32,000 bases of DNA from Planctopirus limnophila DSM 3776 (GCF_000092105.1 NC_014148.1:2610001-2642000), one strand, 5' to 3'; counted from the stretch's first letter, positions 5,718 through 15,282 are shown. The notes: a model not told the origin generated them from the sequence alone. Made by a program: numbers and translations.

Positions 5718-7259
5718 TTAGCGTGCGTATTCAATGACTCGTGTCTCACGCAGGACAGTGACTTTGACTTCCCCAGGGTAGGTGAGAGATTGTTCAATGG
5801 CTGTTGCCAGATCGCGGCACAAACGGGCCGCTTCGCGATCATTCACATCCTGCGGATTCACAATGACGCGGATTTCCCGGCCCGCCTGAACTGCATAAGC
5901 CTGTTCGACACCTGGAAATCCACAGGCAATCGATTCCAGTTCTTCCAGACGTTTGACGTATCGCTCAAGCGACTCGCGGCGTGCACCAGGTCGAGAAGCC
6001 GAACAGGCATCGGCAGCCGCCACCAGAACTGTGTAGATGTAATCAGGACGAATATCGTCGTGATGGCCGCGTGCGGCATGGATCACCTCGGGACGTTCGC
6101 CATACCGCTTGAGCAATTCGGCACCCACAGCCGGGTGACCACCTTCCATTTCATGGTCGGCGGCCTTTCCAATATCATGCAGGAAGCCGCAGCGGCGGGC
6201 GAGATTGCCGTCCAGCCCCAGTTGCTCTGCCATCATGCCTGTGAGTGCAGAAACTTCAATCGAATGCCGCAGTACGTTCTGGCTGTAGCTGGTACGGAAG
6301 TGAAGTCGCCCCATGAGTGCGAGCAGTTTCTCGTGGAGGTTAGGAATCGTGGCTTCCTGTGCAGCCTCAGCTCCCTGGCGAAGAATATATTCTTCCATTT
6401 CCTTCTGAGTTTCGAGCACGATTTCGTCGATGCGCGTGGGGTGCATGCGACCATCTTGAATCAGTTTAATCAGTGCGAGCTTGGCTGTTTCCCGGCGAAC
6501 ACTGTCAAAAGCTGAAACAACGACCACACCCGGTGTGTCATCAACAATCACATCGACTCCGGTGGCCTTCTCAAAGGCGCGAATATTGCGGCCTTCGCGA
6601 CCAATGATTCGCCCCTTCATTTCATCATTCGGGATGTCAATTGTGGAAACCGTTGATTCGGAAGTATGGGCTGAGGCGTACCTCTGAATGGCCATACCAA
6701 TGATCTCCCGAGCCTGCTTTTCGCTCTGGGCTTTCACTTCGGCCTCGTGTTTCATTACGAGAGCGCCAGTTTCGTTCTTGAGTTCACGTTCGAGCTGATC
6801 CAGGAGCATTCGGACGGCAGATTCGCGATCCAGGCCGCTGATCTTGTAGAGTTGTTCCTGCTCCTGCTTGAGAATTTTTTCGACTTCTCGATCACGAGCT
6901 TCCACCACTTTGGCGCGTTCTGCCAACTTGGTTTGAGTGGTCTCCAGCATTCTTTCTCGCTTGGCGAACTCGTCCTGGCGCTCGCGAATCGTGGCTTCTT
7001 TTTTATCCAAAGCCCGCTCCAGCTGTCGAAGTTCATCTCGCTGTGCTGAAAGCTCACGGTCAAGTTCTTCTCGACGCTTAAGAAGTTCTTCTTTGGCAGA
7101 GAGCTCGGCAGCTTTTCGCAAGTTCTCGGCGTCACGCTCGGCCTGAGCGACGATCTCTGCACGGGTTTTGAACGCAGTACCACGAACAACTCGTTCAGCG
7201 AAGTATCCCGCTGCTGCTCCGAGTAGCAACCCGAGAATGCCTGCAATGACTATTTCCAC
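5718..7259 (-). CDS. rny: Ribonuclease Y
   Basis: N-terminal TM helix ([20 protein letters not shown]) and a long Glu/Lys/Arg coiled coil. KH domain ([33 protein letters not shown]). HD domain (RHSIEVS...GFLHDIGKA...HH.DI). The probable start is GTG at 7259; the track ORF extends to 7358 through non-conserved sequence. Confidence 0.92.
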
Positions 7260-8083
7260 TTGGCAGCCCTTAAATTTTGTCGGCTGACAAATGAATTCTT
7301 GAATGAAAAAGGCGGAGAAACGAATCAGATCTGTCTGAAGGGAACCAAAGACAATCAATCACCACTCATTGGAGCTTCAACAGTCATTGATGATTTTCGA
7401 CGATATAGGAACCAGCTGATCATTTCACAAACACAGTTTTTACAACGAGTTCATCAATCCGATCTGCCTGAGTCGGGAATACCAACTCTTACAATGAGAC
7501 TTCCATAACCGAACAGAAATCTGGAACTGCTTACCAAATCAAACTGTGTGCCTTCTTCAAGCATTCACAACGATGACAGTCAATTTCCAAAATGATCCAT
7601 CTTTTCGGCAGGTTGTTCTCGGCGTAAGTCAGATCTGAGCCATGATTTGCCAGCGGACTTCGAAATAACTGGTAGAAGTGCGTCGAGAAACTGCCATACG
7701 GTGTTCTTCTCAATGAGTGGAGGCTGATCACCTGAAACTGTAACTGGAGTTTCAAATACGATTCCCCACAACACACTCAAATCACGCCAGATATGGCCCC
7801 TTCAATCGTCAAAAATTTTCCGAGATTCGTTTACTGCCCCCACTGCATTCAACAATCCATCTGCAATCGCTTTATCTGGTTGATGACTGCTTGCGAACAC
7901 ACGTTGCAAGCATTTACAAATCAAACACTTACATTGGTTACTGAGGATTTCAGAAAACCACCGTAAGCCTTATAGTAACAGGTCGGCACGACGAATCAAA
8001 TCGCCGTAGCGATCAACAGTTTCAACATTCTCAAGCCCCGTCAGGCTCTTCCCACGTCTGGAGCCGGGCACTGGCGATGCTTA

Positions 8084-11936: not shown

Positions 11937-12207
11937 GTTTGCACTCCACCGCAAATATTCAGCGACAACGTTTCCGCATTTGCGAAAAATAGCAGCTAAG
12001 TTCACGCAGAACAAGTGAATGCCTATCCCAGAAACACGACGATTTTTACGACAATTCCATTTCGGCGGCGAAAGGAGTCCCGTAACTTCATTTGCGAACC
12101 ACCCAAATGCCGAAAACTGACCACCAGAAAATATTCATAAGAACACTTATTTTCATGATCAGTTCCACTTTCGCATTCTGAACCACAATTCAAGAAATGT
12201 GATCTTC

Positions 12208-13485
12208 ATGCAGACGACCCCCAAAATTCTGATCGCAGGGGGAAGTGTGCGTGCTGCAGCGGACTCGGCTCAGCGTGGCGGGTGGCAAGTTATCGCCTAT
12301 GACCAGTACGGAGATCTGGATCTTCAAGAATCATCGATCTGGCAGTCACTTCCCGCAGAAACCAAGAATTGGTCTTTTGATCTCGCCCATGTCGAACACG
12401 TGCAAGGTTGGACATACACAGGCCCATTTGAGAACTGGCCCGCAGATGCATCGAGATTCTCAGAGCAAGCCGACAAATGCTCGATTCCGCTGCTTGGAGT
12501 TTCACCCCGGCTTCTCAAACGGATTCGTGATCCCCGCTTTCTGCAGGAAACGTTTGCCAGTATCGGTGGGAATCCTCTGGCGGTGATCCTTCCCGGCCCA
12601 GTCGTACCTTCCGAATTACGACCAGCGACTCAAATCGATCTATCCAAAGTTCAAGAGTTGATTCGTAAACCGCTGCACTCCGGGGGAGGGTTCAATGTTC
12701 GCGATGTCTCTCAAGCCGACATCATGGAAGAGAGCTTCCCTCATTCGCTTGATGAGCTTGAATACCTGCAGGAAAAAGTCCATGGGGTTCCGCAAAGCTG
12801 CATCTTCATGGCGAGTTCAACCCATGTGGAGAGAATCGGTTGGACTGAAGGTCTGATGGGCACTCCCTGGGGAAAATATGGTTATCGCGGCTCCGTGGGC
12901 CCGATCACTGTTCCCCCACCGATCGATGAGCTGGCCTGTTCACTGGCGAACGCGATTGTCAAAGCGACGGGCCTGTCGGGAATTCTGGGAATTGATGGCA
13001 TTCGCTGCGATGAGTCGTGGCGACCGATCGAAATCAACCCGCGCTACACGGCGAGTTGTGAAATTCTGGAAGGAACAGTCGGCCATCCCGCATCGCTGAT
13101 GGATCTTCATCTCAGGGCCTGGCAGAGCGAACTGATGCCACCTTGTTTGAGAGATGTGTCCGCAACTTCCAGGAAAAAAACAACAGGTGGGGATCATTCG
13201 CAGCGCCCCGACTTCGGTTGCAAGCAGATCGTCTATGCAGGGGAAGCCTTTAATGCGCCGGATTTGCGTGTTCCCTGGTTGAAATCGCATTCTGGCAAAT
13301 TCCTTCCACAAGCATCACCTCATCAAGTGATTGCCGATATCCCCATGCCTGGAAGTCTCATTTCCAGTGGATACCCGGTTTGCACCCTCTTCGGATGGGG
13401 TTCTTCGATTGCCGATGCCCGCCGACAATGCGCAGAGCATTGGTCTCAACTGACGACTCATTTTCCCGAGCTGAAGCTTGCCTGA
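12208..13485 (+). CDS. ATP-grasp family protein (COG2232-like carboligase; possibly H4MPT-pathway associated)
   Basis: The N-terminus ILIAGGSVRAAADSAQRGGWQVIAYDQYGDLDL resembles the pre-ATP-grasp domain of COG2232-type proteins. IRKPLHSGGGFNV, YLQEKVHGVPQS and ILGIDGIRCDESWRPIEINPRYTAS match ATP-grasp nucleotide/Mg-binding segments. The track start is GTG 12199; the first ATG is at 12208. Confidence 0.7.
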   Translation: MQTTPKILIAGGSVRAAADSAQRGGWQVIAYDQYGDLDLQESSIWQSLPAETKNWSFDLAHVEHVQGWTYTGPFENWPADASRFSEQADKCSIPLLGVSPRLLKRIRDPRFLQETFASIGGNPLAVILPGPVVPSELRPATQIDLSKVQELIRKPLHSGGGFNVRDVSQADIMEESFPHSLDELEYLQEKVHGVPQSCIFMASSTHVERIGWTEGLMGTPWGKYGYRGSVGPITVPPPIDELACSLANAIVKATGLSGILGIDGIRCDESWRPIEINPRYTASCEILEGTVGHPASLMDLHLRAWQSELMPPCLRDVSATSRKKTTGGDHSQRPDFGCKQIVYAGEAFNAPDLRVPWLKSHSGKFLPQASPHQVIADIPMPGSLISSGYPVCTLFGWGSSIADARRQCAEHWSQLTTHFPELKLA

Positions 13486-13727
13486 CGACCTCCCTACTTT
13501 CAGACGAATTCATACAGCATGAATCTTTAGATCATCAGTCATAAGCCTTACATTCGGCGATACTTCCCGGAATTATCAGGCTTTACACCGAGATTGTTCC
13601 AAGAGTGGCCCTTGGACATCTTGTTGATGACCACAATCATAGCGAGACGAATGCTGTTCCATCGAATCCTGATTGATCGCGAGCTTGAACAGCCCCTCCG
13701 ATTTGTCCGAAATCGATCCCTCCGTGA

Positions 13728-14612
13728 GTGCGACGTTGTCGCAGTAAAGTCTTCATCGTGCCCACACCTGCCGATCGCATCCATCTGGCCCTCGAAATCC
13801 TTGTCGAAGAGTGGACCCCATTCATTCGACAGGAATTGAGCAAGTCGTATGGACATCGAGTCGAAGAAGTCATTCTTGCGCAGATTCGCGGTGATCGAAA
13901 CATGGCCTCTGCCAGATTTTCCGATCCGCTGTCAGATCCCCATATCTTGCTGAATGTGGTCTGGGAACAGTGGAATCACTGCTTTCGCCATCAGTTGGGA
14001 ATCTTTGAACGGAGCCTGATCAGCGAACTGCGTGAGTTTCGTAATCAGTTAGCTCATCAGTCGTTTCTCACTGAAGACGATGCCTACCGAGTGCTCGATA
14101 GCGTTCAGCGGTTATTGGTGGCGACAGGCCACACCCAGCGGGCGACTCAGTTAGAAGATGAAAAGGTCGATGCACTCCGGCAGAAATTCGGGCATCGCGT
14201 CAATCGCGAACTGGCCAGAATTCGGTTCAATCGACGGCGTCTGCTCGACATCGCACTCTACAGTCTCTGCTGCTTTGCATTGGTCACAACGTTGTGGAGC
14301 TTTCTGTGGGAGCGTCACTGGCTGGCCACATTACTGCTGATTGCCTTCGTGATCTTTACCTTTGGTTACTTCATCTATCAGCGTCTGAGTGCTGCAATTC
14401 CGGTCTTTGGCGTCCATGAATGTGCTCATTGCCGCAGGGTCATCTACACAGAATCTTGCCCGTACTGTGAACAATCGCCTGCACATCGGCATAGACGAGC
14501 TCAAATTCTCGATCCTCGGGAAGAGGCTGATGCGACGCTCGCTCACGAGACACTGGAAATGATTGACCAGAGTGCAAATCCTCTGGAACTGATTTCCAAA
14601 GTTCCGCGCTGA
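13728..14612 (+). CDS. Swt1-like HEPN domain protein fused to two TM helices and a C-terminal CxxC..CxxC zinc ribbon
   Basis: HEPN Rx4H motif ELREFRNQLAHQ (R at 14040). It is preceded by ...LEILVEEWTPFIRQELSKSYG...DPHILLNVVWEQW.., which is typical of Swt1-type HEPN. TM helices are LLDIALYSLCCFALVTTLWSFLW and WLATLLLIAFVIFTFGYFIY. Then CAHCRRVIYTESCPYC. The start is uncertain (GTG 13728 or GTG 13758). Confidence 0.7.
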   Translation: MRRCRSKVFIVPTPADRIHLALEILVEEWTPFIRQELSKSYGHRVEEVILAQIRGDRNMASARFSDPLSDPHILLNVVWEQWNHCFRHQLGIFERSLISELREFRNQLAHQSFLTEDDAYRVLDSVQRLLVATGHTQRATQLEDEKVDALRQKFGHRVNRELARIRFNRRRLLDIALYSLCCFALVTTLWSFLWERHWLATLLLIAFVIFTFGYFIYQRLSAAIPVFGVHECAHCRRVIYTESCPYCEQSPAHRHRRAQILDPREEADATLAHETLEMIDQSANPLELISKVPR

Positions 14613-14642: not shown

Positions 14643-15014
14643 TTACTGCGCACTCTGAATATCGGGACGCAACTTCTTGGCTTCTCCCAGGTAGACATGC
14701 ACAATTTCACTGGGTGCCTTACTTGAGTTCACATGCAATAACACACGAATACAACGTGGCAACGCCTGGGGAACTGCGATCTCTGATGCGCACAGGAGTG
14801 GCACTTGCCTCATCCCGAGAGCGCGAGCCGCCTCGGCCGGAAATGTCGAGGTGAGATCGGGGGTTGTCGTGAAGATCGCTGAAACGATTTCGTCGAAATC
14901 GACGATTTCATTCTGCTGAAGCAGTTCTGCCAGGAGTTCTCGAGTCGCAGCCAGAAGCAGTTCAGGATTATCGCAATCCACACAGGTTGCACCACGAATT
15001 CCTCTGACGGACAT
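14643..15014 (-). CDS. aroH: Monofunctional chorismate mutase, AroH class
   Basis: [18 protein letters not shown]...[18 protein letters not shown]...CIRVLLHVN...[13 protein letters not shown] is colinear with Bacillus AroH (IRGIRGATTV..., TPDL..VFPAK, CIRVMM, HVYL..LRPD). 123 aa from ATG 15014. The track ORF (to 15167) adds 51 non-homologous residues. Confidence 0.85.
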
Positions 15015-15067
15015 CTCAGCCCACTCCCTCTCGAACTCGCTTGAACATTCGATCCGCAGACATTCAA

Positions 15068-15094
15068 TCAATCGTTGCAGATCGTAACGATTGA
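15068..15094. promoter_or_regulatory. Perfect 9-bp inverted repeat in the aroH / arsR divergent intergenic region (candidate operator)
   Basis: TCAATCGTT (15068-15076) and AACGATTGA (15086-15094) are exact reverse complements with a 9-bp spacer. The repeat lies 54 nt upstream of the aroH start and ~190 nt upstream of the arsR-like start. Confidence 0.25.
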
Positions 15095-15282
15095 CCATCC
15101 TGCCCGACAGCCACCCACAGGCTTGTTCAGCAATTCTTGCCGCAGCCAGCATGACAACCTTGTTCAACTTGTCATTGCCAAACTTTTTCTTACGATTTTG
15201 TCATCTTTCTAACGCCGATCAACGTATCTACAGTCGTAACAGTAACCCGTACACAGATTCAAACATCGAAAGGTGTCGATCG

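Follow-up and report, generated by a model that had tools for sequence, protein, structure and literature searches.

A membrane-anchored Swt1-type HEPN protein with a zinc ribbon in Planctopirus limnophila, a predicted endoribonuclease carried by one bacterial family

The window analysed here is a stretch of 32,000 nucleotides from Planctopirus limnophila DSM 3776 (NC_014148.1:2610001-2642000). Within it, an uninterrupted open reading frame at 13728-14612 on the plus strand encodes an N-terminal HEPN domain, a pair of hydrophobic helices and a zinc-ribbon knuckle, and we refer to it as the HEPN-2TM-Zn-ribbon gene. An ATP-grasp_3 gene (12199-13485) lies upstream and a convergent gene for a type-I (AroH-class) chorismate mutase (14643-15167) lies downstream. 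The features discussed below are as follows, with positions counted from the first letter of the window.

5718-7358, minus strand: RNase Y gene
13486-13757, no strand: upstream intergenic region of 272 nt, without a conserved small ORF or known RNA
13728-14612, plus strand: HEPN-2TM-Zn-ribbon gene, longest ORF (294 aa, GTG start, stop included)
13758-14612, plus strand: probable true coding sequence of the gene (284 aa, GTG start)
13788-14123, plus strand: Swt1-like HEPN domain (aa 21-132 of the 294-aa ORF; Pfam PF18731)
14040-14057, plus strand: predicted R-x4-H catalytic motif RNQLAH, R105...H110 (read from the sequence)
14133-14243, plus strand: basic linker helix from the HEPN domain to TM1 (aa 126-162 in the 284-aa numbering; AF2 helix 126-183)
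14244-14309, plus strand: predicted TM helix 1 (Kyte-Doolittle 19-mer windows up to 1.93; LYxxCxxAI pattern retained)
14319-14381, plus strand: predicted TM helix 2 (Kyte-Doolittle up to 2.30; AF2 helix H188-211)
14409-14468, plus strand: zinc-ribbon knuckle G-x2-E-C-x2-C-x8-C-P-Y-C (C232, C235, C244, C247; from sequence and conservation)
14469-14609, plus strand: C-terminal tail, poorly conserved (low-confidence model; length and sequence vary among homologues)

The longest ORF probably begins upstream of the true start. Homologous proteins begin M-P-T-P or M-N-T-N, and these N-termini align with an internal GTG at 13758. All Planctopirus orthologues share GTG-CCC-ACA-CCT (VPTP) at this position, and a relative that is 65% identical (L058) has an ATG there. 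On these grounds, the true start is probably GTG 13758, which would give a product of 284 aa.

The single significant Pfam-A match in the 294-aa protein is to PF18731 (HEPN_Swt1); it scores 91.8 bits (cut-off 27.5, E = 4.7e-26) and spans positions 2-113 of the 115 in the model. A search with NCBIfam profiles gave nothing significant. Among 5.8 billion clustered proteins, homologues were found in 63 clusters (90% identity), and PF18731 is present in every one; most of the proteins are 240-290 aa in length, a few reach 370, and the named ones belong to Schlesneria, Rubinisphaera and Planctomycetaceae MAGs. PF18731 is matched by all 60 of the homologues that were aligned, and a weak match to DUF4145, a HEPN-clan family, in 22 of them provides secondary support for the HEPN assignment. 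The codons CGT AAT CAG TTA GCT CAT at 14040-14057 encode RNQLAH. Residues R105, N106, A109, H110 and Q111 are invariant among 24 homologues, and the R, N and H of the RNxxxH motif are still invariant when the alignment is extended to 60. They belong to a block, E-L-R-E-F-R-N-x-x-A-H-Q, which is conserved in both alignments and in which the glutamate before the arginine is also invariant, Planctopirus included. Planctopirus does replace two near-invariant tryptophans, as for example where RNRWAH has become RNQLAH. Within this genus dN/dS ranges from 0.06 to 0.20, and the gene is thus under purifying rather than diversifying selection.

Both hydrophobic helices are retained in the two alignments. 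Hydrophobicity over 19-residue windows peaks at aa 165-183 and 188-206 in the 284-aa numbering (175-193 and 198-216 in the 294-aa numbering). The first predicted helix has conserved Tyr, Cys and Ala positions, including a near-invariant Cys, and the second follows a GF..F.Y..Y.R pattern. The four cysteines of the knuckle, C232-x2-C235-x8-C244-x2-C247, are encoded at 14421-14468, and G228, E231, C232, C235, Y240, C244, P245, Y246 and C247 are invariant in the alignment of 24 homologues; the knuckle pattern is still conserved in that of 60. Across 60 homologues, the 16 residues preceding TM1 contain on average 4.45 Lys and Arg, compared with 1.78 in the segment following TM2, and the predicted periplasmic turn between the helices averages 3.6 residues (range about 3-5). 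This positive-inside bias and the short loop fit an N-in/C-in hairpin that exposes no domain to the periplasm, in which the HEPN domain and the zinc ribbon would both be cytoplasmic.

An AlphaFold2 (AF2) model built from the 60-sequence alignment has a mean pLDDT of 87.1. Its N-terminal domain is all-alpha, with main helices at about 4-45, 61-76, 82-99 and 106-122, followed by a single helix (126-183) in which the linker runs into TM1, and then by TM2 (188-211). The zinc region is modelled as a small beta knuckle with pLDDT values of 73-82, and the last 40 residues of the tail fall to 44-66. Modelled on its own (pLDDT 88.8), the HEPN domain is again all-alpha and has four main helices. Foldseek searches with the full-length and HEPN-only models against the PDB, and with the HEPN-only model against the viral BFVD set, returned generic helical bundles, all with E > 0.6, and the HEPN assignment therefore rests on the sequence profiles and the motif. 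A sequence-profile search of the PDB matched the zinc ribbon weakly to those of Nop10 and Spt4, at E values of 0.1-0.9 that are not significant.

A reading of this stretch made from the sequence alone had proposed a Swt1-type HEPN domain with an Rx4H motif, hydrophobic helices at aa ~172-194 and ~197-218, a CxxC-x8-CxxC knuckle and a hairpin with both ends in the cytoplasm. The profile match, the conserved cysteines, the hydrophobicity peaks and the charge bias bear out this description, and the arginine and histidine on which its RNase proposal depended prove to be invariant. The sequence-only reading also took the architecture to be undescribed, and in this it was mistaken. Anantharaman, Makarova, Burroughs, Koonin and Aravind (Biol Direct 2013; PMC3710099) sorted the membrane-associated HEPN proteins of bacteria into three groups, and in the third of these two TM helices lead from an N-terminal HEPN domain to a zinc ribbon at the C-terminus; their example is gi 325108440 from Planctomyces (now Rubinisphaera) brasiliensis. 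By analogy with Ire1 and C6orf70, they predicted that members of this group process RNA at the membrane's inner face. Compared by description, the Planctopirus protein agrees with the third group in architecture, bacterial family, predicted location and predicted role, and there is no structural difference between them. A homologue from Rubinisphaera margarita (37% identity, 83% query coverage) has the same architecture. The Planctopirus version does differ from other members in its long branch, in the loss of the two near-invariant tryptophans and in its position away from the DUF1501-linked locus described below. Orthologues are already named 'Swt1 family HEPN domain-containing protein' by NCBI/RefSeq, and a literature search by Pfam and RefSeq family names found the architecture mentioned only in the 2013 paper. 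Both the architecture and its likely role have thus been published in silico, and the gene has been named in RefSeq.

The host genome (5,460,085 bp in two contigs; closest named relative Planctopirus hydrillae, 94%) contains one copy of the gene. In a GTDB sample of the family Planctomycetaceae, the full-length gene was found in 106 of 151 genomes and 70 of 92 genera (76%), and in 83 of the 120 high-quality genomes; carriers almost always have one copy. About 30% of the genomes sampled lack it, complete genomes among them, and the gene is therefore dispensable and does not serve a strict housekeeping function. When 301 genomes from across the phylum were searched, full-length matches were confined to Planctomycetaceae (13 of its 15 genomes), and 13 genomes from other families matched over residues ~5-150 only, inside ORFs of 711-1170 aa. 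A tblastn search of 72,556 plasmids matched 47 records, none at a query coverage of 80% or more, and the 15 plasmid matches listed cover only the HEPN half of the protein (51-60% of the query). No match was found in 50,697 phage records.

We compared the divergence of the HEPN protein with that of RNase Y, which is also encoded in the window. The seven best-scoring genomes from outside the genus by the HEPN protein all fall within the dozen closest by RNase Y. The bit scores of the two proteins correlate with a Spearman rho of 0.44 overall and 0.21 among distant genera, so that the correlation with this marker gene is moderate overall and weak or vanishing at greater distances. Vertical descent is supported mainly by prevalence, single copy number, a shared ancestral locus and the lack of a mobile context, and not by formal reconciliation. 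In these respects, the gene behaves as a chromosomal, inherited gene of one family and not as a mobile anti-phage module.

The gene neighbourhood agrees with this view. The eight contexts covered have annotated neighbours with roles in metabolism or transport and none in defence, PADLOC found no match in ten unannotated or adjacent neighbours, and no cas genes or CRISPR/Cas13b context occur among the annotated neighbours in the window. Run on the HEPN-2TM-Zn-ribbon protein itself, PADLOC gave nothing significant (best E = 0.055, to the TM region only). The 272-nt gap upstream contains no conserved small ORF: its ORFs are frame-broken in P. hydrillae, and comparison with the 65% identical relative gave no match beyond the HEPN coding region. 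An Rfam search of the gap gave no match at E <= 1, and promoter- and terminator-like matches in it occur at chance level only. We considered and rejected an adjacent antitoxin, as in a HEPN-MNT or type II toxin-antitoxin pair, the flanking genes being ATP-grasp_3 and chorismate mutase, with no conserved ORF upstream. The sequence-only reading was right about these two neighbours and about the lack of an adjacent antitoxin or sensor gene. Its implied framing of the gene as a defence or abortive-infection effector finds no such agreement: the gene is single-copy in about 70% of the genomes of one family, its neighbours serve metabolism and transport and give no PADLOC match, the plasmids searched carry only relatives of its HEPN domain and the phages none, and the orthologue neighbourhoods covered, which that reading had wished to see searched for defence enrichment or a conserved partner, contain no defence genes and no obligate partner.

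There is, however, a recurrent arrangement in other genera. Of the 94 loci that have at least 1.5 kb of sequence upstream, 39, from different genera, were found by tblastn mapping to carry a DUF1501 orthologue (620-960 bits) on that side and in the same orientation as the HEPN gene. A PSCyt/PSD1 gene often precedes the DUF1501 gene, and a membrane-anchored Exo_endo_phos (EEP) gene separates DUF1501 from HEPN in 24 loci from distant genera; about 15 loci have a small cupin gene downstream. With intergenic gaps of 70-380 nt, the DUF1501-linked arrangement looks like an ancestral chromosomal locus and not an operon. In Planctopirus 166 kb separate the HEPN gene from the DUF1501 orthologue, and no EEP orthologue is detectable. 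Among 151 genomes, 55 have both EEP and HEPN, 51 have HEPN only, 18 have EEP only and 27 have neither (odds ratio 1.6, p = 0.21). EEP as an obligate partner was rejected on account of this non-significant co-occurrence and its absence from Planctopirus. The HEPN-2TM-Zn-ribbon gene has no fixed partner and no mobile context.

The origin of the architecture was addressed with a maximum-likelihood tree of 80 HEPN domains, comprising 61 with the TM-Zn architecture, two split or fragmentary copies, and 17 HEPN-only segments from longer ORFs. The last were taken as DUF499-type, the domains having been checked in two of them. A branch with 99/96 support separates the 61 TM-Zn sequences and the two fragmentary copies from the 17 longer-ORF sequences, a result that fits the architecture having arisen once. 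Midpoint rooting, which does not prove the root, nests the TM-Zn clan among the DUF499-type sequences. The branch leading to the Planctopirus clade is long (1.04). The two ORFs examined from the 711-1170-aa set combine HEPN_Swt1 with DUF499, and one of them adjoins a DUF1156 methylase gene; a gene of HEPN-DUF499 type also occurs on a Meiothermus plasmid amid helicase, DUF1156 and ATPase genes. The 2013 paper had described this arrangement as the Ava_2192 type, associated with R-M systems. Since these nearest relatives reside in restriction-modification (R-M)-like operons and on plasmids, a conflict-related ancestry of the HEPN domain is likely.

A phmmer search of 1.84 billion representative proteins with the linker, TM hairpin and zinc ribbon (111 aa) returned 40 proteins. 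Nine of the ten module-bearing proteins checked contain HEPN_Swt1, and the short matches resemble fragments. In one protein (P0099) the module is joined to a TPR-like N-terminal domain. To judge from these matches, the TM-plus-Zn module is essentially private to the HEPN-2TM-Zn-ribbon family and would lack the domain shuffling typical of conflict systems.

Comparison with better-known systems helps to place the protein. Its HEPN domain is 31-40% identical over ~150 aa to those of the Ava_2192-type HEPN-DUF499 proteins, with which it shares ERSLVSELRxxRNxWAHQ and DDxYRxLDS blocks. Those proteins, however, are ~850-1170 aa long, carry a DUF499 AAA+ ATPase without TM helices or a zinc ribbon, and are found beside methylase and helicase genes in many phyla and also on plasmids. 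We rejected assignment of the Planctopirus protein as an R-M component of this type; PF18731 stands alone in its 294 aa, without DUF499. The Ire1/RNase L KEN domains and C6orf70, the analogues chosen in the 2013 paper, are HEPN RNases that act as dimers on the cytosolic side of a membrane, as is predicted here, but the present protein has no kinase or lumenal sensor domain, an external loop of only 3-4 residues and no specific sequence relationship with them. RNase Y is an endoribonuclease tethered to the cytoplasmic membrane, as is predicted for the HEPN protein. It has an unrelated fold (KH and HD) and a single N-terminal TM helix, and is present in 142 of 151 family genomes compared with 106 of 151 for the HEPN gene. 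Stand-alone HEPN Abi proteins and toxins (Abi2/AbiD/AbiF, ApeA and HEPN-MNT) resemble it as single HEPN effectors with an Rx4-6H motif, but they are patchy, mobile, and linked to defence islands or paired with antitoxins, none of which applies to the HEPN-2TM-Zn-ribbon gene.

From these data we infer the RNase activity, dimerisation, substrates and physiological role of the protein as follows. The reading that we favour, and to which we give about an even chance, is that of a resident, vertically inherited, homodimeric and membrane-tethered endoribonuclease which carries out membrane-proximal or stress-triggered RNA cleavage. The active site of a HEPN RNase is built from two Rx4-6H motifs. Each chain supplies one HEPN domain, and the protein would therefore have to work as a homodimer or in a larger assembly. 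The tight TM hairpin would hold the HEPN domain and the zinc ribbon at the inner face of the membrane, and the long linker-TM1 helix together with the conserved TM residues probably sets the oligomeric assembly. RNA near the membrane would then most likely be cleaved either constitutively or once membrane or translation stress shifts the oligomeric state. The zinc ribbon could plausibly act as an RNA-, ribosome- or partner-binding module, as a regulatory module or as an autoinhibitory lid. Because there is no external loop, localisation or sensing of the state of the membrane would be expected rather than ligand sensing.

Among the other explanations considered, the most credible, though in our estimation rather unlikely, is a domesticated and lineage-fixed abortive-infection or stress toxin. 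Its RNase would be kept inactive, perhaps because the chain stays monomeric or the zinc ribbon covers it, until phage-induced perturbation of the membrane or of translation released it to degrade cellular or phage RNA and arrest growth. HEPN RNases are recurrent effectors of defence and toxin systems (PMC3710099). The closest HEPN relatives are the HEPN-DUF499 proteins of helicase-DUF1156 methylase operons, some of them on plasmids, among which the TM-Zn clan nests behind its 99/96 branch, by midpoint rooting only, and a gene missing from ~30% of family genomes is dispensable. Against this stand the lack of any PADLOC match or of a defence gene in the eight contexts and ten unannotated neighbours, a single-copy distribution that is broad rather than patchy by genus, the absence of the full architecture from the plasmids searched and of any match from the phages, purifying selection, and the absence of an adjacent antitoxin or immunity ORF.

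A more elaborate reading we hold to be speculative and unlikely as it stands. The protein would be a bacterial counterpart of Ire1-like regulated RNA decay, its RNase domain having been captured once, at the base of Planctomycetaceae, from a HEPN-DUF499 R-M-like ancestor, fused to the hairpin and zinc ribbon, and domesticated. Under envelope or translocation stress the oligomeric state of this resident enzyme would change, and it would then cut mRNAs lying close to the membrane, for example messages for proteins that are exported co-translationally.

It is less probable again that the protein is a regulatory or processing component of the upstream PSCyt/PSD1-DUF1501-(EEP) envelope cluster, for example one controlling the mRNA of that cluster at the membrane. 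The same-strand DUF1501 gene in 39 of 94 loci, with EEP intervening in 24 from distant genera, speaks for such a tie. Yet the HEPN gene is still constrained in Planctopirus, where DUF1501 is distant and EEP undetectable, EEP and HEPN do not co-occur significantly across 151 genomes, and the 70-380 nt gaps suggest separate transcription.

We consider very unlikely a membrane effector resembling Csx28, the type VI-B CRISPR accessory protein, in which the HEPN domain would serve in oligomerisation or nucleic-acid sensing and the TM hairpins would form a depolarising pore. Csx28, likewise a small protein in which a HEPN domain is combined with one or more TM helices, demonstrates that a pore in the membrane can arise from such a fusion (bioRxiv 10.1101/2021.11.02.466367). 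In the present family, conservation of the TM residues exceeds the needs of a simple anchor. In Csx28, however, an N-terminal TM segment precedes a divergent C-terminal HEPN domain and the gene lies by cas13b, whereas here the order is reversed, a zinc ribbon is added and there is no CRISPR or Cas13b context. The hydrophobic hairpins, with their 3-4-residue loop, offer no obvious polar lumen, and the canonical, strictly invariant Rx4H motif with its flanking E, N and Q would point instead to catalysis. Least probable of all is a non-catalytic membrane scaffold that binds RNA or protein and merely keeps the HEPN fold, as proposed for the eukaryotic Swt1 HEPN domains, which are thought to be inactive sensors; the long Planctopirus branch (1.04) and the two replaced tryptophans would suit it, but the R, N, H and preceding E are invariant even in Planctopirus, and Anantharaman et al., who group the Abi2 and Swt1 HEPN families together, class bacterial Swt1-family versions as catalytically active (PMC3710099).

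What the present analysis adds to the earlier prediction is modest and descriptive, namely the distribution of the family, its mode of inheritance, its essentially private C-terminal module, its apparent ancestral locus and the absence of a partner. Planctopirus limnophila, a laboratory planctomycete that causes no disease, has been reported to be genetically tractable, so the in silico prediction of 2013 is directly testable in this organism. If the prediction is true, Planctomycetaceae would possess a second membrane-tethered endoribonuclease besides RNase Y. The family would also provide a clean example of the domestication of a defence-type RNase whose domain is found elsewhere in conflict systems, and possibly a bacterial analogue of membrane-localised regulated RNA decay.

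The Planctopirus clade of the HEPN family sits on a long branch of 1.04 substitutions per site, and the near-invariant Trp residues of the homologues (in WDAH... and RNRWAH) are replaced in it (window 13758–14183 compared with homologues). This long branch and the Trp replacement coincide with a move of the HEPN gene from the ancestral DUF1501 locus to its present site in Planctopirus, the ATP-grasp/chorismate-mutase position. The isolated ATP-grasp gene that precedes the HEPN gene in Planctopirus is also found less than about 2.5 kb from it, on the opposite strand, in genomes of Planctomicrobium and Thalassoglobus (loci L042, L107, L111 and L118). This proximity is a second synteny signal, and a weak one. 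The genes concerned are as follows.

Window 12199–13485: ATP-grasp gene, isolated, upstream of the Planctopirus HEPN gene
L033:5935–6930: Exo_endo_phos (EEP) gene, often preceding the HEPN gene, with equivalents in 24 loci
G000:C1 2789729–2791144, (-) strand: host DUF1501 orthologue (68% identity) of the HEPN-linked copy in other genera

The Exo_endo_phos protein encoded ahead of the HEPN gene (L033 and equivalents) carries about three TM helices at its N-terminus and is a membrane-anchored EEP enzyme. Its gene is linked to one specific PSCyt/PSD1–DUF1501 pair, and in several genomes this gene and the DUF1501 gene upstream overlap at the stop of the latter. DUF1501 paralogues occupy at least 22 places on the host contig (G000:C1), among which only the copy listed is a clear orthologue of the HEPN-linked one.

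Some Planctomycetaceae genomes contain a second, HEPN-only Swt1-family match within a longer ORF.

G016:C179 and G105:C228: HEPN-only match in an ORF of about 1100 aa, additional to the TM-Zn gene
G108:C215 and G142:C289: HEPN-only match in a longer ORF, perhaps in place of the TM-Zn gene

The additional matches indicate that one genome can hold both architectures. In the tree, the HEPN-only ORFs of all four genomes cluster with the DUF499-type HEPN domains. The TM-hairpin/zinc-ribbon module was itself found with a different N-terminal domain in a sole match, the metagenomic protein P0099 (215 aa), in which the TM hairpin and an HEC-x2-C-x8-CPYC zinc ribbon are fused to a non-HEPN, TPR-like domain that matches 'Frankia_peptide' below threshold.

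The HEPN gene is seemingly split, truncated or stop-interrupted in a few genomes of the family, with the HEPN and TM-Zn parts as separate ORFs.

G070:C6:207737–208442
G079, contigs C24 and C6
G087:C2:90407–91092

These copies suggest that decay or loss of the HEPN gene is ongoing in some lineages.
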